Source: a virus (Duplodnaviria; Heunggongvirae; Uroviricota; Caudoviricetes). Taken from it: a stretch of 47,071 nucleotides of DNA. Position 1 is the first letter of the stretch; every line of letters begins with the position of its first letter. Where the stretch lies: positions 1 to 47,071 of IMG/VR virus record IMGVR_UViG_3300030037_000008; one strand, written 5' to 3'. Below, in pieces: positions 2,763-44,865 of the stretch. Below the pieces are notes generated by a model. It searched no databases, was not told where the DNA came from, and saw nothing but the letters and a program-made list of their open reading frames with translations. The position numbers were made by a program, and so were the translations under genes.

Positions 2763-5700
2763 ATGAGCAAAATTGATGCAAATCTCTTAAGCCACGATGA
2801 TGAATCGATTGAAATTATCAATAGTACTGAAGCAGGCTTCAAACTAGATCCAGAAGGTAATCTACTTAAAACTGGTGATGGTGTTGCGGTTGATCTTGAT
2901 GGTTTACTTGGTGGACAAATAGATGTTAATGACTTAGTAACAATGGAAGGTTCAACAATGCAACCTGTCCCTGTAGCTAATCAAGTAGTCTTTAAGAATT
3001 TCAATGCCGGATTAGTGCACGGAGCAATTGATGAACAAACATTAGCACTAACAAACAATCAGAGTTTAAATTTATCTAGCGATATTAGCATCGAAAGTCT
3101 TTTAGTAGATAACAACATACCATCTAATGCTACTCATATTGAAGTATTCGTAACTATAGATTGGTCCAAGACTAATTCAAATTGGAATGGTACTTATAGC
3201 TTTGCTATGACAGATTCTGATGTTACAGATAATGACATAATTACTAATGATAATTATCAGTTCTTGTTTAAAGATATGGAGATAGTTAATCTTAATGATT
3301 CTGGTACTCTCCAAGGATCTTTAATCATTCCTATTAATGCATCTAAAGATATTAAGTTTTATACATTTACCGGATCTGATTATGCATTAGATGATGGTGC
3401 AACTCTCGGTCCGTTTGCAAATTCAAGTGGAGCAGCTACTCTTACTGTTAGACCTAGACTACATATTAAAAATTTCCTTTTAACTGAATCTGCCGCAGTT
3501 CCTATTAAAGGATCTGAACTTGTTGGTTTAACTTACTCGCCATTACCTGAAAGTAAAACAGTTTATAGTGAAGTTCTTGATACATTAGGAGATTATCCTA
3601 ATACAGAATTTTCTAACTTACGTTACGCAGTAAATTCTATAGATGTTCAAACAGTGTTAGACAATGCTAGCATTGATATTCCTGACGGAGTAGTAGGTTT
3701 AAAAATATCTACCACATTGGAGATATCAGGAAGCATTAATGGATATGAATCTTTTAACAACTATGTTCTCTGTAATCCTCCTACTGCGAATACAGATCAC
3801 ATTAGTGATCTTAACGATGCTCTAATAGATCTTGATACTACAGGAAATACAAGTATTGCAAATATTGACGGACTGTCTGATATAGCAAACTTTACTCAGC
3901 ATACTTACATTGGCGGATCATTATCTGACGATATTCTAGAATCATCAATTGAAAACTTTGATGTATTTTATGATACTGAAGGTGTTGATAATATAGAGAT
4001 TACATCTGTAATTGCAAACGGATTTCAACAGCCAACAGTAGATGTTCTATCACAAAGAATAGTAGTTAAGATAGTTGGATTCTACTTATCAGAATCAACA
4101 CGTCTAGTAGAAAACTTTATTAATACTGAGTACGTTGCAGTTATTTCTACAACTGATCCCGATCCACTTACTGTTAGTCAATCAGGAACTAATAACTCAT
4201 CTATTACTTATAACATAGCTAATCTTCAAGGTGCTGCTACGTTACTTAGTGATTACATATCAGAAATACATATCGAATATAGTTTATCTAATGTTTCTCC
4301 TGCTGCATCCGGATCATCTGAACTTATTGTTTCATATCCTGATGGAAGTAATGTTACATATGATTTGAGTGATATCACTAACACCGCAGAAGTAGTTAAA
4401 TCTGATATCATAAGATTACCTGTTAATTATGCTCAGCCTACATTTACTATTCAATTGAATACTACTGACATTGATCCATCTTATAGTGCTTCATATAATA
4501 TCATAGGCGTTACTCAGCAAACAGCGTTAGGAGACATTCTAGAATCTATAGGATTGATAGCTTACTCTGCTGCTAATACTACAGTCGATGTTTCAATTCT
4601 TCCTAATTCATATACAGATGTTCAAGCTGCGTTAGAAGGATTGTTTCTTGATACTACTGTTGCTACTCATGACCATGATGCGGACTATGCTAATATAATT
4701 CACGGACATGCGTCTGATGACATTACTGTTACTCCCACTGGTAACTTAACTTCAACTGATGTTCAATCTGCATTAGTAGAATTACAAACAGATATAGATT
4801 CATTCGTTTCTACTGATGATCAAAATTCAATTGAAGTTTCTACAGTCATACAGAATGGTGTAACTCAAGCAAATGTTCAAGCAGAACTCGAACAGATACA
4901 TACTGACATTGGTGCAATATCAGATACTGACGATCAAACTTCTACTGAAGTTGCAACAACTATTCAGAATGGTGTAACTCAAGCTAATGTTCAAGCAGAA
5001 CTTGAACAGATACACATTGACATTGGTACAGTATCTAATGATGAATTAGTTGGTATCTCTTCAAATGATACTACACCTGGAAATCTAGATGATAAGATAG
5101 TCAATGGATCTGGCATAGTTAAATCTATACTTAATGCTTCTGGCGATGAACAACTTCAAGTAGAATTAGGTCCTCATTATCTGGCTCTTGCTTCAACTGG
5201 TTTAATTAGTGGAGCAATTATGTCTCCAGGTGCAACAACAGGAACTATCGATATAACTATAGGACATGGATTGTATGTTGATTCAACTACTACATATCCA
5301 ACAGTTGAAGCACAAGGTGTAGAGATATCAGCTAGAACTAATTTTGCTATTACTGATATTTTAACCGAAGTTGTAACTTATATATCAGTAGATAAAAATG
5401 ATAATATCATCCAAAATAACGCTATGCCTACTGCATCTGAACGAAGAGATGCTATATTCTTAGGTGTTGTTGGACATGGTGATAATGTAAATGTAGATGT
5501 AAGTAAATCCACTCCTGTAATTGCGTACAATGCTACAGCTCAATTACAAGACTTAATGTCTAGTTTGGGAATATTCAATGTAAGCGGTAACGTCATTGTT
5601 CCAAATGGAGCTAATTTAAGTATCGATAAAACATTAGGACAGCTCTTCAAATCAGGTTCTAATTTTGAAACTGATCCAAAAAACCCACATATATTAACAT

Positions 5701-13573: not shown

Positions 13574-14179
13574 TTAAGCCCGATCTGCTATAATTTGTTC
13601 AGTTATTTCAACTGATCTAGCTGCTACGAAGTCATGGGGCTTTACAATATCAAGTTTTGACTTACGTTTACTTAATGGATCGTTATCACCTGTTGATCTT
13701 ACTTTTGACATATTAGCTCTAACAACGTCATTCCATAGAAGACAGAATTCTTCGTTAGTTAGACCCATCATATCAATTGTACCTAATGCTATGTATACAA
13801 TATCTATCAAAGCATCGAAGGCTTCGGGTAGATCATTTGTTTCAATGGCATCTTTAAACTCATCAAACTCTTCTTGAATAAAGTTAGCTCTAAATTGCAT
13901 AGCTTCTTTATCACAGAATCCGGGAGATTCGTTAATAGGAATATCAAATTTACCATGGAAGCCTGATACATCATTTAAAAGTTTAGACCATTTGTATTTG
14001 CTACTATCAACCAGGTTACCTGTTTCTTTTACTTGAGCATCTACTTGTGCTGCAATTTGTTTGCTAACATCTTTAAACATTTCGTCTATTTTAGATGTGA
14101 TTTCTTTTTTAGCAACTTCTTTATATTCAGACTTGAATTTTTCAATTGCTGTGTTGAATTCTTCTTCAGTATATGTCAT
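13574..14179 (-). CDS. MazG-like all-alpha NTP pyrophosphohydrolase (dUTPase/dCTPase candidate)
   Basis: FRANFIQEEFDEF...DALIDIVYIALGT...VVRANMSK...IVKP pattern. Confidence 0.85.
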   Translation of the reverse strand: MTYTEEEFNTAIEKFKSEYKEVAKKEITSKIDEMFKDVSKQIAAQVDAQVKETGNLVDSSKYKWSKLLNDVSGFHGKFDIPINESPGFCDKEAMQFRANFIQEEFDEFKDAIETNDLPEAFDALIDIVYIALGTIDMMGLTNEEFCLLWNDVVRANMSKVRSTGDNDPLSKRKSKLDIVKPHDFVAARSVEITEQIIADRA

Positions 14180-17087: not shown

Positions 17088-18389
17088 TTAAATATCCATG
17101 ATATCATCTAAAACTTCCACGTATGGATTGAATTCTGGAAAGTTACATATTACAATGAGTCTTTTTAACGCAGCTAAGAAAACTTTATCGAACATCTTAG
17201 GTTGATCTATAATAAACACATCTTTGAATTCTTCGGGGTATTCCGTTCCACCTTGCCATGAAATTACATTAATATTATATTTATTGGTGCTATGAACATA
17301 GATCATACGCGTACGATCACCACCTGGCTTTATCTTTTCGTATTTATTATCAAGGCCCATGTGCTCAATTACATGATTAAAGAACTCACATCCTTTTGCG
17401 CCTGCTTGAGCTCCTTTCTCTACTTCTAAGAATCCTAGGACATCTTTCTTTGTGTTATAGCCGCGCCAAAAAGCCATGTCTTCAGGAGGTAACTCTCTGA
17501 ACTTATCCCAAATTCTCATAATCTCTCCTGCAAATTTCTCTGAGGACCATGGTTCTTCTAATATAGAATAGAAGATGTGTTTAAGTTCATGTTTAATAGC
17601 ATCCGGGTGTTCAGATTTTTTAATCTCTACACCTACAGGTTTAAAGTAAGTATCTACAATATATTTGCCAGTAAGATCTTTATCTCCATCCATATTAAGA
17701 GTTCTAATAATGTACCGTTTCTTAGCAAAGAATAATCCAGAAGAGCATACAGTTTCTCGACCAAACTTAATACATCTATCTCCAGGACCAGCATTGAATT
17801 TCTTTTGCATCATTCTGTCAGAGAATACATTGAGCTTATCACATATATCATCAGCAGCTACACATAGAATTTGAGTATCTTCATATTCAATATCTTTGTC
17901 ATAGACACCATCTATATCTCTACCAATTGCTCTACCTTTTAATAGAACTTCAGTAAGTGGTTTGATGTTAACATATACTGAGTTGTGAACTAGAATGTCA
18001 TTACCGAAGAATATATGAGGATCTTCTTCCATTTGAATATCGTACATGTAGTCTTTTTCAGTAGCTGTATCTACTTCTATGGATTTGATGTCCACTAAAG
18101 TTGCTGAGCCGTTATCATCTAAGAATAACTGATCAGTTTCAGTATTGATCTCATCTGCAGCTACTTTTAATAGTTCTCCATCTCTGAAAACCATAGCACA
18201 ATGATCAGCAGTAATTACGATTGATTTGCCACCTTCTGCGTGAATAGTGTGTCTATCTTTATCAACCTTGTGTCTTATAAGACGCTTGATAGGTCTGTAT
18301 TCGACCTTTCCATTAACTAATGTAGTACAACTTAGGTTGTCTACTTCAATCATTTCATGACCGTCATGTGTCTTAATAATGTTACTCAT
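17088..18389 (-). CDS. polB: Family B DNA polymerase, C-terminal fragment, preceded by a split-intein C-fragment
   Basis: After HN comes SVYV (second half of motif C, YGDTD|SVY), then FFAKKRYI and KPVGVEIKKSEHP; has its own AGGAG SD and ATG. Confidence 0.92.
   Translation of the reverse strand: MSNIIKTHDGHEMIEVDNLSCTTLVNGKVEYRPIKRLIRHKVDKDRHTIHAEGGKSIVITADHCAMVFRDGELLKVAADEINTETDQLFLDDNGSATLVDIKSIEVDTATEKDYMYDIQMEEDPHIFFGNDILVHNSVYVNIKPLTEVLLKGRAIGRDIDGVYDKDIEYEDTQILCVAADDICDKLNVFSDRMMQKKFNAGPGDRCIKFGRETVCSSGLFFAKKRYIIRTLNMDGDKDLTGKYIVDTYFKPVGVEIKKSEHPDAIKHELKHIFYSILEEPWSSEKFAGEIMRIWDKFRELPPEDMAFWRGYNTKKDVLGFLEVEKGAQAGAKGCEFFNHVIEHMGLDNKYEKIKPGGDRTRMIYVHSTNKYNINVISWQGGTEYPEEFKDVFIIDQPKMFDKVFLAALKRLIVICNFPEFNPYVEVLDDIMDI
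17982..18389 (-). mobile_element. Split intein C-fragment (136 aa) containing blocks B, F and G but not block A
   Basis: IVITADH (TxxH), YMYDIQM, HIFFGNDILVHN then Ser+1; no N-terminal C/S nucleophile block. Confidence 0.9.
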
Positions 18390-20670: not shown

Positions 20671-21762
20671 ATGAACCACTTAAAAGAAATCGTAACAATG
20701 TCTAAACCTGACTATAATTCTGAACCATTATTTTTTGGTAAGAACGGCATAGGTCCTCAGCGTTACGATCAGTACAAAGATAAAAAGATTTTTCAGTGCT
20801 ATAAGAATATGTTGGGATTTTTTTGGCGTCCTGAAGAAGTCAGTCTTGGCAATACAGAAAGAAATACATTTGCAAATTTACTACCAGCGGAAAAAGATAT
20901 TTATACAAAGAACTTAAAATTTCAAATTCTATTAGACTCAGTGCAGTCTCGTGGTATTCCTTACTTAATGAAATACTGTACCAATACAGAAATGGAAGCA
21001 TCTATGCAATGGTGGATGGCATTCGAACAACTACATTCATATTCATACAGCTATATTATCTCAGATGTTTATACAGATCCTTCTAAAGTATTTGATTCAA
21101 TCTACGATGATCCTGAAATTGTAGATCGTGCCACATCAGTTACTAAGCAATATAATGATTTACTTGACGAACTTCCAGAAGATACAGAATATGACAAGAA
21201 GAAAAAGTTCTATCTTGCGTGGGTATCAGTAAATATTCTAGAAGGTATTAGATTTTACGTATCATTCGCATGTAACTATGCTTTTGCTGAAACTGGTAAG
21301 ATGATTGGTACTGCATCTATTATCTCGTTAATTAATCGTGATGAGAATCTACATTTAGGTCTTACTCAGCATGTTCTTAAATTATTCAAGAGTGATGAGA
21401 CTGAAGGCTTTGTACAGATTGCTAAAGACTGTGAAGAGATAGTTATCCAAATGTTTAGTGATGCAGCAGATGAAGAAATCAAATGGGCAAAGTATCTATT
21501 CGAAGAATCTTCAATGATCGGTCTTAATGCAGAAATTCTCGCAGAATACATGAAGCATTTGACTAATAAGAGAATGAAAACTCTTGGTCTTGGTCAACTC
21601 TTTCCTACAGTTAAAAAGAATCCTCTTCCATGGATGTCAAGTTGGACAGATTCAGGTGCAGTTCAATTAGCTCCTCAAGAAATGTCAGTTGAATCATATA
21701 AGATTGGTGCTTACAAAAATAACGTAGCTGATGTAGATTGGTCAGATAAATATAGCGTGTAA
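20671..21762 (+). CDS. nrdB: Ribonucleotide reductase class Ia beta subunit
   Basis: FFWRPEEVSL, LLDSVQSRG, EQLHSYSY (Fe ligands and radical Tyr), ILEGIRFYVSFAC, RDENLH, APQE. Confidence 0.97.
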   Translation: MNHLKEIVTMSKPDYNSEPLFFGKNGIGPQRYDQYKDKKIFQCYKNMLGFFWRPEEVSLGNTERNTFANLLPAEKDIYTKNLKFQILLDSVQSRGIPYLMKYCTNTEMEASMQWWMAFEQLHSYSYSYIISDVYTDPSKVFDSIYDDPEIVDRATSVTKQYNDLLDELPEDTEYDKKKKFYLAWVSVNILEGIRFYVSFACNYAFAETGKMIGTASIISLINRDENLHLGLTQHVLKLFKSDETEGFVQIAKDCEEIVIQMFSDAADEEIKWAKYLFEESSMIGLNAEILAEYMKHLTNKRMKTLGLGQLFPTVKKNPLPWMSSWTDSGAVQLAPQEMSVESYKIGAYKNNVADVDWSDKYSV

Positions 21763-23761: not shown

Positions 23762-24415
23762 ATGAGCAATACACATTCAATTAAGACTGTACCTAAATTC
23801 ATTGTAGTTGAAGGTATCGATGGTAGTGGAAAGACTACTGCATGTGAAAAGATTAAAGAGATCCTTTTTGAAGAAGGAGTATTCTCTAATATTACAAGAG
23901 AACTTGGTGGCACAGAATTTTCAAGTAAAGTAAGAGATCTATTCTTACATGAAGATACTAACGTTTCAGCAACTACTGAATTGCTTTTAATCTCCGCTGG
24001 TCGTAGAGACCACATTGAGAATGTAGTAGTACCTACAATGGAAAATAATCTTTGGGTTATCTGTGATCGTAGTTATTTTAGTACTATCGCATACCAAGGT
24101 GCTAACGGTGGTGCTTCTCCAGAGGTGCTAAGAACTGTCAATGAAATAGCGATGGGTGGTATCAAACCAGATTTACTAATTTACTTAGATGTTACTAGTG
24201 AAGTTTCTAGTATACGTCGATTAAATAGAACAGATGATAATGATAAGATGGATGCTTTAGATAATGAATACTATGACAATGCTAGATTTTGTCTTAAGTC
24301 TTTAGTCCAAGCAGCTCCGTTTGCTCATGAACTTGATGCAATACAAAATGATCAAGATGAACTTAAAGAGTTGATGAGACCTTTAGTGAAATCTATCATA
24401 GAGCCATGCAATTAA
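23762..24415 (+). CDS. tmk: Thymidylate kinase
   Basis: FIVVEGIDGSGKTT, TRELGG, ELLLISAGRRDH, VICDRSYFSTIAYQG, KPDLLIYLDV. Confidence 0.96.
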   Translation: MSNTHSIKTVPKFIVVEGIDGSGKTTACEKIKEILFEEGVFSNITRELGGTEFSSKVRDLFLHEDTNVSATTELLLISAGRRDHIENVVVPTMENNLWVICDRSYFSTIAYQGANGGASPEVLRTVNEIAMGGIKPDLLIYLDVTSEVSSIRRLNRTDDNDKMDALDNEYYDNARFCLKSLVQAAPFAHELDAIQNDQDELKELMRPLVKSIIEPCN

Positions 24416-27798: not shown

Positions 27799-28617
27799 AT
27801 GGATAAGAAAGTCCACATTGAAATTAGTGATTTAATAACATGCATACAAGCTGTTGGACGAATAATCCCAGGTGCAGTGTTCACAATAAGAAAGACCGGT
27901 ACTGAAATAGCATGCCTCAAACCAGGCAATACTCTAAGAGGTTATTTCACAACTACAGCAATGAAGTTGGATGAAGATGCCGTAGAAGATGAGATCGAAC
28001 TCTGTCTTCCAGATGTATACAAATTCTCAAAAATCCTAAACATCGTATATCAAACTGGTGGTCTTAAGACTATCACTGTAAATATCAATGATTCAGGTAA
28101 TCAAATTCATTACAAGAAAAGAGGCTCCTCGTTTAAGATTACAGGTTCTATTAAAGAAACTATCTCACGATACATTGCCCCTCCTATCAGAAACAAACTT
28201 GAGTCTATTAATCAAGTAAAAACTATGAGTTCCAACCTTCAGAAGATTGCCACTATGGGATCGATCTCTGATAACTCAGCAGCTCTTAAAGTTTATATCT
28301 CCAAGTGTCCAGAATCAGGTGTCATTAATGCCATTGTAGAAGATGGTGTAAGTGCATTATCAGACTCTATTGGTATGCCAATCTGTTCAGAACTTAATGA
28401 CATCTCAGGTACATGGAATGACTCCTACTGTATTGACATGGAAACATTCAACTTATTCAACGTATTCCGTAACTCAGATCCAACTATTGAGTTAGTAGGT
28501 CTAGGTAGTAAGCGTATGTTAAGAGTTACATGTAAAGCTAAGTCAACCAATAAAGAATCCGATGAAGAATATTCTACTGAAATGTTAGTTATCGCTGCAT
28601 TAAACAAGAACAAATAA
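27799..28617 (+). CDS. Probable DNA sliding clamp (gp45/PCNA-like)
   Basis: 272 aa with two alpha/beta domains, IELCLPDVYKFSKILN ~ gp45 pattern, replication-cluster context with a clamp loader nearby. Confidence 0.65.
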   Translation: MDKKVHIEISDLITCIQAVGRIIPGAVFTIRKTGTEIACLKPGNTLRGYFTTTAMKLDEDAVEDEIELCLPDVYKFSKILNIVYQTGGLKTITVNINDSGNQIHYKKRGSSFKITGSIKETISRYIAPPIRNKLESINQVKTMSSNLQKIATMGSISDNSAALKVYISKCPESGVINAIVEDGVSALSDSIGMPICSELNDISGTWNDSYCIDMETFNLFNVFRNSDPTIELVGLGSKRMLRVTCKAKSTNKESDEEYSTEMLVIAALNKNK

Positions 28618-29384
28618 TGAAAAAGAAAAATATTTTAATCCCATGGTCTGGTGGTTTTGATTCAACTGCTCTTATTATTAATCAGCTAATTAATACAAAG
28701 AATAAAATCTATTTAGCTAGATGCAATTTCAATAATAACAATGCTCAAACTGAATCAGAACTGAAGGCTATGAAGAAGATGCTCAAGATTTTTAAGAGTT
28801 CTTTAGGTGAAAAGAAATTCAATAAGAGATTCAGAAATCACGAAGAAGCATTAACACCTACATTCGAATGTAAACTTAATGATGATTCTGTATTAGTAAG
28901 AGAGAATTCTTTTAATCTTTTCCAACAGATATTCGTAGCTTCAATGGCACCACGATTTTCTAAAGATATTGATGAGATACAATTAGGCTATGTTAAAGAT
29001 GATTCATTCTGGCATCACTCTACTGAGATACTAGATATCTATAAACGTGTCATGACATGTACTTATGCTGATCATCGATTAGGTATTACTATTCCTTTTG
29101 AATGGTGGAGTAAAACTCAAATGCTTGAACTGTACTCTCGATTTGATGCTGGTAAAGATATTCTGAAGAACATTTCAGTATGCCAATCGGGTAATCATTG
29201 GAGAACTGATAAAACTCATGTTGAATCTATCACAGACATTAATATGGCATCAGTATGTCCTGGAGATAAATGTAGATCTACTGCAGCTCTTTATAAAGAG
29301 TTTAAAGTAATCAAAAAAGAAAAGAAAAATAATGTTGAAGCTATGGATACTATGGAAGCTAAAGGAGTAGACGATGAAAAATAA
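28617..29384 (+). CDS. QueC-like PP-loop ATPase
   Basis: ILIPWSGGFDST, P(F)EWWSKTQM, C-terminal Cys cluster with non-canonical spacing. Confidence 0.75.
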   Translation: MKKKNILIPWSGGFDSTALIINQLINTKNKIYLARCNFNNNNAQTESELKAMKKMLKIFKSSLGEKKFNKRFRNHEEALTPTFECKLNDDSVLVRENSFNLFQQIFVASMAPRFSKDIDEIQLGYVKDDSFWHHSTEILDIYKRVMTCTYADHRLGITIPFEWWSKTQMLELYSRFDAGKDILKNISVCQSGNHWRTDKTHVESITDINMASVCPGDKCRSTAALYKEFKVIKKEKKNNVEAMDTMEAKGVDDEK

Positions 29385-32594: not shown

Positions 32595-32945
32595 ATGTCA
32601 TATGATGGACCCAAACCAAAGTTCTGTGGTGGAGCTTATAAAGTAGATGGACAGTATGGCGAATACTTTACTATCTATTTTTCACAAGCAGATCTTAAAC
32701 TAATGCTCGAAGAATCAGATCATCGTGGTGTTAAAGTATCCATGAATGCTAAACGTACTCAAACTGAAGGTAGTACTACTCATTACCTTAAAGTTCTTGA
32801 ACGTAGAGAAACTTCTACTACTCCAGTTAAACCAGTAGAACAAGAAAGAGATATCTCAAGCTTATACACTCCTCAGTTCCTAGACACTAACGCTGCAGTA
32901 GCATCTAAGATGCTGGATGATATCGACGATGACATCCCCTTTTGA
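32595..32945 (+). CDS. Small SSB-like protein with a bacterial SSB C-terminal tail DDDIPF
   Basis: Beta-rich N-terminal ~70 aa, linker, and terminal DDIDDDIPF. Confidence 0.6.
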   Translation: MSYDGPKPKFCGGAYKVDGQYGEYFTIYFSQADLKLMLEESDHRGVKVSMNAKRTQTEGSTTHYLKVLERRETSTTPVKPVEQERDISSLYTPQFLDTNAAVASKMLDDIDDDIPF

Positions 32946-33318
32946 TATAAGAGAAAGCTGTGAAATTGATAACGGATGTGATCATAAATGGGTCTTAGAT
33001 GTAGATCCATTTGGTTCATTCTTAAAGTGCACTGAATGTCGAGAGTGCCTACCTACCGGCTTTCTTAATTCACCGCTAATCAACAATAAAAAACTATCAG
33101 ATAATGTTTGGCCAGAGGGTATTTGCTTATCTTGTCATTGGCCAGTTTTAATGGCATTAAACAACTCTAATTTTTGTGATAAGATGCCTAAAGAAGATCA
33201 ATGTTTTGATAGATATGTTTACTGTACTAATAAAGGATGTGACAACCATGAAGGTGAAAGTCAACATCAATCAGATATAGATTGGATTATTTATCCAGAA
33301 AAAAGAGGAACTAAATGA
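32917..33318 (+). CDS. Cys-rich zinc-binding protein (start uncertain)
   Basis: CxxC pairs CTEC and CLSC plus C...C..H. Confidence 0.55.
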   Translation: MISTMTSPFDIRESCEIDNGCDHKWVLDVDPFGSFLKCTECRECLPTGFLNSPLINNKKLSDNVWPEGICLSCHWPVLMALNNSNFCDKMPKEDQCFDRYVYCTNKGCDNHEGESQHQSDIDWIIYPEKRGTK

Positions 33319-33854
33319 TATATGTTATCGAAGGTGTAGATTGTAGCGGTAAATCGACAATCATCCAAGGAATTAAGAAAAGATTAAATAACGGATTAGA
33401 TACAGAAGTAATTCACTCTACATTCCCACAAGGTGAAACACTTGAAGAGAAGTATGAGTTTCAAGTTAAGTACTTCACTGATCTTATTAATATGCTAATT
33501 GCTAACCAGCATAAAAAGAATTTCATTCTCGATAGAGCATGGATTCCAGAGAAGTTTTATTCTCCTATGTATCGTAATAGAGAAGCAGAATACATTGATA
33601 ATTTGGAGCAACGCCTTATTGATAATGTAACTCCTAATCTTATTAGAAATGTATTAGTAGAAGCACCAGTAGAAGATATTGAATATCGTTTCAATACTTA
33701 CCGTGGAGAGGATGATCCATGTCCTCCAAGAGAAGATATTGTAGAGTTAATAGGTTTATTTAGAAAAGCTACAAGTAGCGCTCTAAGTCACTACATTACC
33801 GCTCACAATGATAATAGCACAGACGTCGAATTGATTATCGACTCTATAATGTAA
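33315..33854 (+). CDS. dNMP kinase (thymidylate-kinase-like P-loop)
   Basis: IYVIEGVDCSGKST, ILDRAW...YSPMYR. Confidence 0.85.
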   Translation: MIYVIEGVDCSGKSTIIQGIKKRLNNGLDTEVIHSTFPQGETLEEKYEFQVKYFTDLINMLIANQHKKNFILDRAWIPEKFYSPMYRNREAEYIDNLEQRLIDNVTPNLIRNVLVEAPVEDIEYRFNTYRGEDDPCPPREDIVELIGLFRKATSSALSHYITAHNDNSTDVELIIDSIM

Positions 33855-33864
33855 AGGAAAATAT

Positions 33865-34710
33865 ATGATTGCAATCGAAGGAAACTCAGTAGCAGAACTA
33901 CTTACTAAAGTAGTAACGCTCATTATTAAGAAAGAACATAATCCAAAAGTAGTAAATATCTCATCACCTCGAGGTAAAAAGTGTTATGCTATCAATGATA
34001 ATATTGCTCTTAAATTAACCGATCCGATGAACACCGTATTCGAATCAGAAACACGTAGTACTCAATTAGAATATCTATCAGATGAACTTCATCTTTATTT
34101 TAAAGGTACTAACAAAGTTAAAGATTTTGCTAAAGCATCCAAGTTCTGGAATCATCTTACTAATCCTGATGGAACTACTATTAATTCAGCTTACGGTCAT
34201 CTTCTTTTTAAAGATAAGAACGAACATGGTTTTACTGAATTTGGTTGGGCAATGAATTCTCTTATCAAAGATAGAGATACTCGTCAAGCTATTATCAGAT
34301 TCAACAAACCTACTCATTCATTTGAAGGTAACAAAGATTTCGTATGTACTCTTAGTGGTGTATTTGCTATTAGCGATAACAAACTTAATCTTACTATCAA
34401 TATGAGAAGTAATGATATTCAGAGAGGCATTCCATTTGATATTCCTTTCTTCTGTATTCTATTACAACAAGCTCATATGATTCTGGTTAAAGAATATCCT
34501 GAATTGAAGATCGGTACTTATGAACACATCGTTAACAACATGCATATCTATGATACTGAGTATAAATTATACAAAGACATTGTAGATAAAGGTCGTAAGT
34601 TTGTTAATCGTAGATGTCATATTGATACTCAACTTATTGATAAAAACGGTAAGCTTATTGTTGAAAAGTTTAATCGTAAAACTATTGATGAACATTTAGT
34701 AATTACTTAA
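33865..34710 (+). CDS. Thymidylate synthase homologue with Asp at the specificity position (dCMP hydroxymethylase/methylase type)
   Basis: Catalytic FVCT, MRSNDIQRGIPFD (D where ThyA has N), NMHIY, DTRQA. Confidence 0.85.
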   Translation: MIAIEGNSVAELLTKVVTLIIKKEHNPKVVNISSPRGKKCYAINDNIALKLTDPMNTVFESETRSTQLEYLSDELHLYFKGTNKVKDFAKASKFWNHLTNPDGTTINSAYGHLLFKDKNEHGFTEFGWAMNSLIKDRDTRQAIIRFNKPTHSFEGNKDFVCTLSGVFAISDNKLNLTINMRSNDIQRGIPFDIPFFCILLQQAHMILVKEYPELKIGTYEHIVNNMHIYDTEYKLYKDIVDKGRKFVNRRCHIDTQLIDKNGKLIVEKFNRKTIDEHLVIT

Positions 34711-34718
34711 GCTAAAAT

Positions 34719-34744
34719 AAAAGGTCTATTAATTTAGGCCTTTT
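34719..34744 (+). terminator. Rho-independent terminator
   Basis: aaaaggtcta/taggcctttt stem followed by T/G. Confidence 0.75.
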
Positions 34745-34747
34745 GTG

Positions 34748-39846: not shown

Positions 39847-40440
39847 ATGAATATTTTATACATACACGGATTCGCATCATCTGGATCAAACAGTTCTAAA
39901 GTAAAAACAATAAATAAAATTTATCCAGAAGCAAATATATTCGCACCTGATTTAAAACATGATTTAGTGCAAGATGTACAATTTCTCAAAGAGATCTTAG
40001 TTTATCTAGATGTAGATATTATAATCGGAAGTTCGATGGGAGGTTATTTAGCAACAATACTAGCAACAGAGTTCAATGTTCCAACTCTATTAATTAATCC
40101 GTTAGTCGACACTCAGTATTTATTAGACAAAGCAGGCGCAAGGTATAGAAACTATTCTACAGGTAAAGACTTCTACTTCAGTAACGCTAATTATAATACT
40201 GATGTATTAACAAATGATAATGGAAGAAATGGAAGATATTCAAGTGATGTTAATGATATTAATAAGATAACAGTAGCTTTAGGAACAGAAGACAAAGAGT
40301 TAGATCATACTTTAGCATTAGATAAATACAAGCAATGTACCATCCTAAAATATGAAGATGATCATCGTTTCAGTAAATCTTTTTTACCAGCACTACTAAA
40401 ATTTCAACAACAATGTGAAGTAAACAAACTATATAACTAA
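39847..40440 (+). CDS. YqiA/YcfP-family alpha/beta hydrolase (ends KLYN)
   Basis: LYIHGFASS, GSSMGG nucleophile elbow, LINP, DDHRF. Confidence 0.9.
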   Translation: MNILYIHGFASSGSNSSKVKTINKIYPEANIFAPDLKHDLVQDVQFLKEILVYLDVDIIIGSSMGGYLATILATEFNVPTLLINPLVDTQYLLDKAGARYRNYSTGKDFYFSNANYNTDVLTNDNGRNGRYSSDVNDINKITVALGTEDKELDHTLALDKYKQCTILKYEDDHRFSKSFLPALLKFQQQCEVNKLYN

Positions 40441-43746: not shown

Positions 43747-44865
43747 ATGAGTATAGAGTTAATTGAAAAATACAACGAAGCATACCGCAACGGAGAAGTT
43801 CTAGTAAGTGATGCAGAGTACGACGCATTATGTGAAGAGTTTAATTACGAACCTGGAGTTGGAGCTGAAATTTCAACTGGTGATAAAGTAACTCTTCCTA
43901 TTCCAATGGGTTCACTTAACAAAGTTAAATCTCTTGAAGATCTTATCAAATGGTCAGCTCCTCATCCAAACGAGACCTTAGCTGCTACACCAAAATATGA
44001 TGGTTGTTCAGTTCTTCTTAAAGCTGTAGGCAGAACTATTAAAGCAGTGTATACTAGAGGAGATGGCAAAGAAGGTAGAAACATTCTTCCATTACTTGAT
44101 AATCACAAACAGATCCAAGCGCTCAATGAAATGATGCAAATGGCTAATCCTGAAGAAAGATACATTCCTTCAATGGATGAGTTCTATATCATTGGTGAGA
44201 TCATTATTCCAGAAGATCTATTCAAATCAAAATACTCTTCAACCATGAAAAACTCTCGTAACATGGTAGCTGGTCTTATTAATAGATCAGAAGCTCAAGC
44301 TCCTATTCATGATTGTATGATTATGTTATTTGATATCAAAGGCGATACAAAACAAGCATATCTAAACAAAACCAATAAGATTGAAATTCTTAACTTTTGG
44401 AACCATGAATACATTCAAACACCAATCCTGGTAAGTTGTGTAGCAGATCATCACATGGAAGATAAGATGATGAAGATGTGGCAAAACATGGACACTAAAG
44501 TTAAATGTGATGGCATCGTAGTAGAATTCAATAGCTCATTATTAAGAGATGAACTTGGATTAGAAACTGGTAAATTGAATCCTGCTTTTGCCCGAGCGTT
44601 TAAGCCACCAGTTGAAGAACAAAAAACTACAACAGTTGATAAGATTGATTGGCGAGTTAGTAAAGATGGTAAGTGCATTCCAGTTATCAATCTTGTTCCA
44701 ATAGATCTTGATGGAGTAACAATCAGTAACGTAACGGCCCATAACGCTTCCTTTGTACAAGATAACGAGATTAGAGTTGGATCTCTAATAACTATCAAAC
44801 GATCCGGTGGAGTTATACCCACCATTGTTAAAGTAACCAATAACGATGATGTAACGGAGTTTTAA
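43747..44865 (+). CDS. ligA: NAD+-dependent DNA ligase, short form (domain Ia, adenylation and OB only)
   Basis: YNEAYRNG...SDAEYDAL, PMGSLNK, PKYDG, TRGDG, DGIVV, ARAFK, VTAHNA, RSGGVIP, then stop. Confidence 0.9.
   Translation: MSIELIEKYNEAYRNGEVLVSDAEYDALCEEFNYEPGVGAEISTGDKVTLPIPMGSLNKVKSLEDLIKWSAPHPNETLAATPKYDGCSVLLKAVGRTIKAVYTRGDGKEGRNILPLLDNHKQIQALNEMMQMANPEERYIPSMDEFYIIGEIIIPEDLFKSKYSSTMKNSRNMVAGLINRSEAQAPIHDCMIMLFDIKGDTKQAYLNKTNKIEILNFWNHEYIQTPILVSCVADHHMEDKMMKMWQNMDTKVKCDGIVVEFNSSLLRDELGLETGKLNPAFARAFKPPVEEQKTTTVDKIDWRVSKDGKCIPVINLVPIDLDGVTISNVTAHNASFVQDNEIRVGSLITIKRSGGVIPTIVKVTNNDDVTEF

Follow-up and report, generated by a model that had tools for sequence, protein, structure and literature searches.

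A predicted T4-style hydroxymethylcytosine pathway with a distinct synthase clade in a large uncultured phage

The kinase-synthase locus

We analyzed a stretch of 47,071 nucleotides, hereafter called the window, which forms the first 47 kb of the 119,584-base viral record IMGVR_UViG_3300030037_000008 of IMG/VR (Caudoviricetes), with an estimated CheckV completeness of about 59%. The window carries, side by side on the same strand, a gene for a homolog of thymidylate synthase (TS) and a gene for a divergent nucleotide kinase. The same synthase protein, identical in sequence, was also found on a record from a contig of 255,591 bases. An earlier note on the window had proposed that this phage replaces deoxycytidine by 5-hydroxymethylcytosine (5hmC), 5-methylcytosine (5mC) or another C5 derivative. 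The results reported below support such a replacement and narrow it to 5hmC: in the DNA of this phage, cytosine is very probably replaced by hydroxymethylcytosine (hmC) that carries sugars. The system would work like the hmC pathway of T4, which is known as a means of evading restriction, in a new lineage and with a distinct synthase clade. A T4-style pathway would thereby exist far from the Straboviridae, in a phage that is uncultured and measures about 256 kb. The analysis contributes the predicted assignment of the synthase, arguments against 5mC and 5-hydroxycytosine and the description of a kinase family, all of them drawn from sequence.

The synthase open reading frame (ORF) carries the motifs NMRSNDIQRGIPFD and NNMHIYD. 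Its upstream neighbor is indeed a P-loop, thymidylate-kinase-like ORF, but the overlap coupling described in the earlier note does not exist between these two genes. They are separated by a 10-nt gap that harbors an AGGAAA Shine-Dalgarno sequence, and the overlap is found one gene further upstream, where the ATG of the kinase overlaps the TGA of the ORF with a zinc-binding domain (ATGA). The latter ORF is probably merely a co-transcribed neighbor. A hairpin starting 7 nt past the synthase stop codon possibly marks the end of the transcription unit. The gene context of the synthase consists of genes for DNA replication and deoxynucleoside triphosphate (dNTP) supply. The canonical thymidylate kinase (TMK) and the MazG-type gene that the earlier note had listed elsewhere in the window were both recovered by profile searches (Table 1).

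Table 1. Features of the window, with positions counted from its first nucleotide
Feature	Position	Strand	Basis or remark
Predicted 5-hydroxymethyl-dCMP synthase (dCMP hydroxymethylase), thymidylate synthase superfamily	33865..34710	+	281 aa, PF00303, signature residues
Divergent nucleotide kinase, thymidylate-kinase fold, candidate 5hm-dCMP kinase	33315..33854	+	179 aa, Walker A GVDCSGKST
ORF with phage zinc-binding domain	32917..33318	+	PF23895 at 7.3e-13
Terminator-like hairpin	34717..34746	+	Consensus scan, 12-pair stem; pattern match only
MazG/PRA-PH-type all-alpha nucleotide pyrophosphohydrolase, candidate dCTPase	13574..14179	-	PF01503 5.7e-13, phrog_671 9e-24
Canonical thymidylate kinase	23762..24415	+	PF02223 5.8e-37, 127.6 bits
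Ribonucleotide reductase small subunit	20671..21762	+	phrog_86 at 2e-121

Fold and signature residues of the synthase

The synthase matched PF00303 at 1.1e-16. Its best sequence matches in the Protein Data Bank (PDB) were the deoxycytidine monophosphate (dCMP) hydroxymethylase of T4 (dCH; 1b49, 5e-14) and MilA, a cytidine monophosphate (CMP) enzyme (7e-14), and ThyA chains followed at 3e-7 or weaker. An AlphaFold (AF2) model built on 42 homologs reached a predicted local distance difference test (pLDDT) score of 90.8, and Foldseek searches with this model returned MilA (1.2e-18) and T4 dCH as top matches among many ThyA structures. The NCBIfam equivalog models for ThyA gave the protein at most 47.3 bits, against cut-offs of 108 to 427 (327 for the best model), and a protein so far under these cut-offs is not a thymidylate synthase proper. 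A homolog search yielded 693 proteins with E values of 1e-5 or lower, the best 120 of which were compared. Among the matches listed, many sit on contigs of 100 to 330 kb. The closest cultured relatives belong to the Enterococcus phages VPE25, VFW and vipetofem, at 34.6 to 35% identity.

We aligned the synthase with E. coli ThyA, T4 gp42, RB69 gp48 and the deoxyuridine monophosphate (dUMP) hydroxymethylase of phage Ag3, all taken from annotated records. The catalytic Cys and the HIY motif, which the earlier note had described as intact, correspond to C161, aligned with T4 C148 and ThyA C146, and to H227/Y229, aligned with ThyA H207/Y209. The other pairs, with ThyA numbering in parentheses, are E74 (E58), Y110 (Y94), R140 (R126), D158 (L143), R181/S182 (R166/S167), D184 (D169) and D192 (N177). 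D192, which aligns with T4 D179, is the Asp that had been noticed in place of the Asn of dUMP-specific enzymes. Enzymes with Asn at this site recognize uracil, and those with Asp recognize cytosine (PMC13326640). As D192 is invariant in the best 120 homologs, it is not a chance feature; the Ag3 enzyme has Asn.

D158 is located three residues before the catalytic Cys, in the motif NKDFVC, and is also invariant in the best 120 of the 693 homologs. An Asp or Glu at this position (T4 D145, Cys-3) activates the water that forms the hydroxymethyl group, and the D145N substitution abolishes the production of 5-hydroxymethyl-dCMP (5hm-dCMP) by the T4 enzyme (PMC6400193). The hydroxymethylase signature is completed by a Ser/Thr-x-Tyr motif (T4 S94, Y96; PMC6400193). 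The corresponding segment of the synthase, INSAYG (S108/Y110), aligned with INSNYG of T4, and S108 and Y110 were invariant in the homolog alignment. R140 and S182 aligned with Lys133 and Ala176 of MilA, the two residues that stand where the deoxy enzymes have Arg and Ser and to which the preference of MilA for ribo-CMP is due (PMC5175136).

At the three sites equivalent to ThyA L143/D169/N177, the synthase and all of the best 120 of the 693 homologs have D/D/D, and every catalytic residue is kept. The same sites read D/D/D in T4 gp42, E/N/D in RB69 gp48, D/D/N in the Ag3 enzyme and L/D/N in ThyA. The published residues of T4 gp42, RB69 gp48 and the Ag3 enzyme were thus recovered in the same alignment, indicating that the controls behave as published. 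The synthase combines the fold and catalytic Cys with the N177D replacement, the Asp at Cys-3, the Ser-x-Tyr motif, the Asp retained at the D169 site and the Arg/Ser pair. All published determinants of a dCMP hydroxymethylase are therefore present, which narrows the C5 derivative to 5hmC. In all likelihood, judging from these residues, the ORF codes for a 5hm-dCMP synthase of the T4 type.

In T4 gp42 (PDB 1B49, 1B5D, 6A9A), which has the same fold, the corresponding residues are E60, S94-x-Y96, D145, C148, R168, S169, D171, D179, H216 and Y218. The two proteins differ in length, 281 residues for the window synthase and 246 for gp42, and the former has an extra C-terminal extension and, in the RR phosphate pair, a Gln in place of the second Arg. 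With only 26% identity to gp42, the window synthase represents a separate clade.

Several points weigh against the assignment. The low identity to gp42, and of about 25% to MilA, means that it leans on the signature residues and the context. The whole synthase family has Gln in place of ThyA R127, the second phosphate-binding Arg (DTRQA versus DSRR in T4 and ThyA). Moreover, the examined sequence amounts to 119.6 kb of the 255.6-kb contig, about half of the genome.

Phage Ag3 has the RQ pair of the family in its ViI-type dUMP hydroxymethylase. Another observation concerns Agathobaculum phage AB434P2, one gene of which (2860-3519 of the compared locus) is annotated as a deoxyuridylate hydroxymethyltransferase while its product has Asp at the N177 site (PYD). 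From its sequence, this gene probably codes for a dCMP enzyme, in which case the public annotation is wrong.

The presence of the hydroxymethylase signature in the best 120 of the 693 homologs, members of a clade of several hundred metagenomic proteins, suggests that many large environmental phages are likely to have fully modified cytosines. Such widespread modification would bear on sequencing bias, on restriction and CRISPR escape and on studies of host defense.

A divergent kinase upstream of the synthase

The kinase ORF scored under the cut-offs of the thymidylate kinase models, with 21.8 bits for PF02223 (cut-off 27) and 31.7 bits for TIGR00041 (cut-off 83.25), and these matches cover the P-loop region only. 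It nevertheless has the TMK fold, as thymidylate kinases and B. subtilis SPbeta YorR both superpose on its AF2 model (pLDDT 69.6), with TMq values of up to 0.72 and about 17 to 20% identity in the structural alignments. It shares with them a Walker A motif of the form EGxDxxGK and a D/N-R motif after strand 3, and it carries the D/N-R and Y-S-P-x-Y-R motifs typical of nucleoside monophosphate (NMP) kinases. Unlike Tmk, it belongs to a large family of its own, and this genome encodes it in addition to a canonical TMK.

A word-based homolog search with the kinase returned the protein itself as the sole match. Using tblastn against 80 related viral loci, we found kinase homologs of 23 to 31% identity directly upstream of the synthase homolog. 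Family members were gathered from the flanks of the related loci and by profile search. Out of 1.84 billion representatives, the family profile matched 1777 clusters with the E-value limit set at 1e-3 and 181 with a limit of 1e-30. According to the profile, a family member is present on the same strand and within 300 nt upstream of the synthase homolog in 38 of the 75 related loci. The related loci show two types of context. In one, genes for topoisomerase II subunits, a guanylate kinase and a TMK-like kinase precede the synthase; in the other, SbcD and SbcC genes do so, in an arrangement like that of T4 genes 47 and 46. Most kinase homologs have an unusual Walker A motif, G-x-D-x-x-G-K-D-T, with the Lys followed by an Asp as it is in T4 gp1. 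The usual GKST is found in the window kinase.

The kinase profile aligned with vipetofem gp056 and RB69 gp45 over 106 and 113 columns (hhalign probability 91%, E 1e-6). The former is a 171-aa gene directly upstream of the TS homolog of that phage, and the Enterococcus phages VPE25, VFW and vipetofem resemble the window in having a family member at this position. The latter belongs to the cytosine-modification cluster of RB69, where it is called a 'nucleotide kinase'. In comparisons with the canonical TMK of the window and with T4 gp1, only the P-loop aligned (28 columns and a probability of 45% for gp1). Both profile and position thus place the window kinase in an unnamed group of TMK-like kinases linked to TS homologs, and not in the gp1 type, with which it has no homology beyond the P-loop. 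This widespread family travels with cytosine-modifying TS homologs in several unrelated phage groups.

The earlier note had called the protein a dedicated kinase. Its adjacency to the synthase is conserved in many phages, and its substrate is one that we infer from the following observations. Because a canonical TMK is present, a second kinase is not needed for thymidine monophosphate (dTMP). By tblastn, we found no homolog of T4 gp1 in the 119.6-kb record. The canonical TMK and the lack of a gp1 homolog in the available sequence point to the divergent kinase as the enzyme that would phosphorylate 5hm-dCMP. In published in vivo assays, a TS homolog was paired with a deoxynucleoside monophosphate (dNMP) kinase, and a clear peak of modified nucleoside was seen only then; mass detection still showed the modified nucleoside with the TS homolog alone (PMC13326640). 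We lean slightly toward the view that the divergent kinase is a 5hm-dCMP kinase. Should it be specific for 5-substituted dCMP, the family would provide a useful reagent.

It may instead be that the synthase is rightly assigned but that the kinase is not dedicated to its product, and serves as a broad dNMP or dTMP kinase, in nucleotide-sugar supply or as a kinase of the hydroxymethyl group. Several findings weigh in that direction and against a 5hm-dCMP kinase. In RB69 and DLP3, the enzyme that acts on modified dCMP is a gp1-type dNMP kinase and not the TMK-like one (PMC13326640), which is merely labeled 'nucleotide kinase'; the TMK-like family may thus serve otherwise. No canonical TMK above the cut-off was detected in 23 related records besides the divergent kinase. 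This restricts the argument from two kinases to the phage of the window, and as the divergent kinase is the sole TMK-like gene of these records, found beside a guanylate kinase, a broader dNMP role is possible. In addition, 32 of the 75 related loci, all with sufficient upstream sequence, have no family kinase within 6 kb of the synthase (the upstream sequence of the remaining 5 is incomplete). Nevertheless, we hold a non-dedicated kinase to be rather unlikely. The phage already owns a canonical TMK, no gp1 homolog was found in the 119.6 kb examined, the kinase-synthase pair recurs in unrelated phage lineages, and both fold and motifs are those of NMP kinases.

One form of this alternative deserves mention. 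5-Hydroxymethyldeoxyuridine (5-hmdU) DNA kinases create a leaving group for the hypermodification of thymidine. The TMK-like family beside cytosine-modifying TS homologs could similarly transfer a phosphate to the 5-hydroxymethyl or 5-hydroxyl group, either of the nucleotide or of a base in DNA, and a leaving group made in this manner would open the way to further hypermodification of cytosine. We know of no described cytosine branch of this chemistry, and we regard the idea as improbable.

Glucosyltransferase, pathway and alternative chemistries

The earlier note reported that no glycosyltransferase was visible. This holds for the window, where none was found among the parts scanned (selected ORFs, and three glycosyltransferase families searched over the whole record), but one is encoded in the same record about 35 kb downstream of the locus, outside the window, at record positions 68903-70114 on the minus strand. 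This 403-aa protein matched PF11440 at 3e-32 and the T4 DNA alpha-glucosyltransferase (1y6f) at 3.7e-40, over residues 7 to 393. On the same strand, a sugar-1-phosphate nucleotidyltransferase (NTP-transferase) with a weak kinase-like tail is encoded at 72352-74190. Between the two genes, a 482-aa ORF (70162-71610, minus strand) gave no Pfam or NCBIfam match and no BLAST similarity to the glucosyltransferase homolog. Neither PF09198 nor PF00534 matched in the record, the blank for PF09198 being a weak one since this profile was silent in every control genome too, and tblastn with T4 gp56 and the beta-glucosyltransferase gave no match in the record.

In T4, the alpha-glucosyltransferase acts on the hydroxyl that hmC offers in DNA. 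The presence of a homolog of this enzyme thus favors a hydroxymethyl over a methyl group, making the 5mC option of the earlier note unlikely. Glycosylated hmC is expected in the DNA of this phage. On the other side of the balance, PF11440 was detected in the record of the window and in none of the 23 related records, two of which are nearly complete, showing that the glucosyltransferase is not a family-wide partner of the synthase.

The MazG-like gene is the sole gene of its kind in the record. A metagenomic association study revealed the joint occurrence of PF01503 and PF00303 on phage contigs with modified cytosine (PMC8670742), and by analogy we tentatively propose that the MazG-like protein is a deoxycytidine triphosphatase (dCTPase). 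Several observations speak against this role. The match to solved enzymes is weak (PDB DR2231, E 0.023), the gene is 20 kb away from that of the synthase and on the opposite strand, and the 23 related records yielded one weak PRA-PH/MazG match. The link to a dCTPase is thus without genomic support beyond this genome and the literature.

In the pathway that we propose, the ribonucleotide reductase would feed deoxynucleotides from upstream, and the MazG/PRA-PH-type protein would probably, if the tentative assignment holds, cleave deoxycytidine triphosphate (dCTP) to dCMP, which both supplies the synthase and excludes plain cytosine from phage DNA. In the synthase, Cys161 would attack C6 of dCMP, and Asp192 would read and protonate the N3/N4 face of cytosine. 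Methylene-tetrahydrofolate would supply the one-carbon unit. Asp158 with Ser108/Tyr110 would position the water that hydrates the exocyclic methylene, giving 5hm-dCMP without hydride transfer. The divergent kinase most likely turns 5hm-dCMP into the diphosphate, a reaction that is not expected of host CMP/dCMP kinases. A host nucleoside diphosphate kinase would then yield hydroxymethyl-dCTP, to be incorporated by the phage polymerase in full replacement of cytosine. After replication, the alpha-glucosyltransferase homolog would glycosylate the hydroxymethyl groups, for which the adjoining nucleotidyltransferase may provide the donor. As a whole, the pathway of hmC synthesis, kinase, dCTPase and glycosylation appears likely.

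The logic of the pathway is that of T4, in which gp42, gp1, gp56 and the alpha- and beta-glucosyltransferases correspond to the synthase, kinase, pyrophosphatase and alpha-glucosyltransferase homolog found here. The differences are that the kinase linked to the synthase has the TMK fold and is not gp1-like, that the pyrophosphatase is PRA-PH/MazG-like and without BLAST similarity to gp56, and that the record, in which no beta-glucosyltransferase was found, has a phage-encoded sugar-nucleotide unit. The Enterococcus phages also resemble the window in part. The DNA of VPE25 and VFW resists bisulfite conversion, in which the authors saw confirmation that its cytosines are modified, and a T4-like beta-glucosyltransferase is encoded by each of the two phages (PMC4999554). 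In vipetofem, a DNA beta-glucosyltransferase is encoded two genes downstream of the TS homolog. The enzyme of these phages is thus a beta- and not an alpha-glucosyltransferase. They are siphophages of 85 kb with a Gram-positive host, and the chemistry of their modification is inferred.

Other chemistries were considered for the synthase. A first one is that of the RB69 gp48 and DLP3 gp80 enzymes, which form 5-hydroxy-dCMP with the help of flavin and O2, so that sugars would be attached directly to the C5 oxygen. These TS homologs share the N177D replacement and an acidic residue at the L143 site with the window synthase (PMC13326640). The resemblance extends to their gene cluster, with its TMK-like 'nucleotide kinase' (RB69 gp45, the profile relative of the window kinase), glycosyltransferases and sugar-nucleotide enzymes, and the phage of the window has its own sugar-nucleotide unit, as arabinosylating phages do. 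However, the mark of the flavin-dependent 5-hydroxy-dCMP synthases is D169N (PMC13326640). RB69 gp48 has this Asn, whereas D184 of the synthase is Asp, as is the corresponding residue of the best 120 homologs. Tyr229 is retained where RB69 has Phe, and the glycosyltransferase of the record is an end-to-end homolog of the hmC-acting T4 enzyme. A 5-hydroxy-dCMP synthase is thus a very improbable reading of this gene.

Equally improbable is a dCMP methyltransferase, which would give the phage a DNA with 5mC as in Xanthomonas phage XP-12. The Asp at the N177 site would suit any cytosine-specific TS homolog, this one included. Nevertheless, a hydrophobic residue at the L143 site accompanies methyl products (PMC13326640), a bulky side chain that methyl-forming enzymes keep and that is Asp in the synthase and its best 120 homologs; this rule comes from the publication cited and not from a comparison with the XP-12 sequence. 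The loss of 5hm-dCMP production in the D145N variant of T4 dCH, the water-holding Ser-x-Tyr motif and a glucosyltransferase homolog that requires a hydroxyl acceptor also argue against methylation.

Finally, it is hardly credible that the gene codes for an ordinary thymidylate synthase, the label given to its homologs in public annotations, or for a CMP hydroxymethylase of RNA or small-molecule chemistry, as the Foldseek match to MilA (PDB 5JNH, 5B6D), which also has Asp at the N177 and L143 sites, might suggest: Asn177 and Leu143 of ThyA are both replaced, the equivalog scores are low, the residues facing MilA Lys133/Ala176 are Arg140/Ser182 as in T4 dCH and ThyA, and the context is one of DNA replication and dNTP supply, unlike that of MilA in a bacterial antibiotic cluster (mildiomycin biosynthesis). 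The genome search for a separate thyA or thyX suggested in the earlier note was run and revealed neither a ThyX nor a dCMP deaminase in the 119.6-kb record, and the synthase gene was its sole match to PF00303. The 5hm-dCMP synthase thus stands as the preferred reading of the gene.

Some other genes of the window were also noted. A QueC-like match at 28617-29384 (plus strand) was considered as a sign of deazaguanine modification and rejected. The matches of this ORF (PF06508 1.2e-5, phrog_1550 2.9e-10 and a weak TilS-N match) show just a PP-loop ATPase and are too weak for a claim of a 7-deazaguanine pathway. The phage polymerase mentioned in the earlier note was recovered as a piece of DNA polymerase, a 433-aa ORF at 17088-18389 (minus strand) whose phrog_262 match spans residues 136 to 414 only. 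On the plus strand, the early region encodes a protein of the UPF0227 esterase family (39847-40440, 1.4e-20) and an NAD-dependent DNA ligase (43747-44865, PF01653/PF03120).

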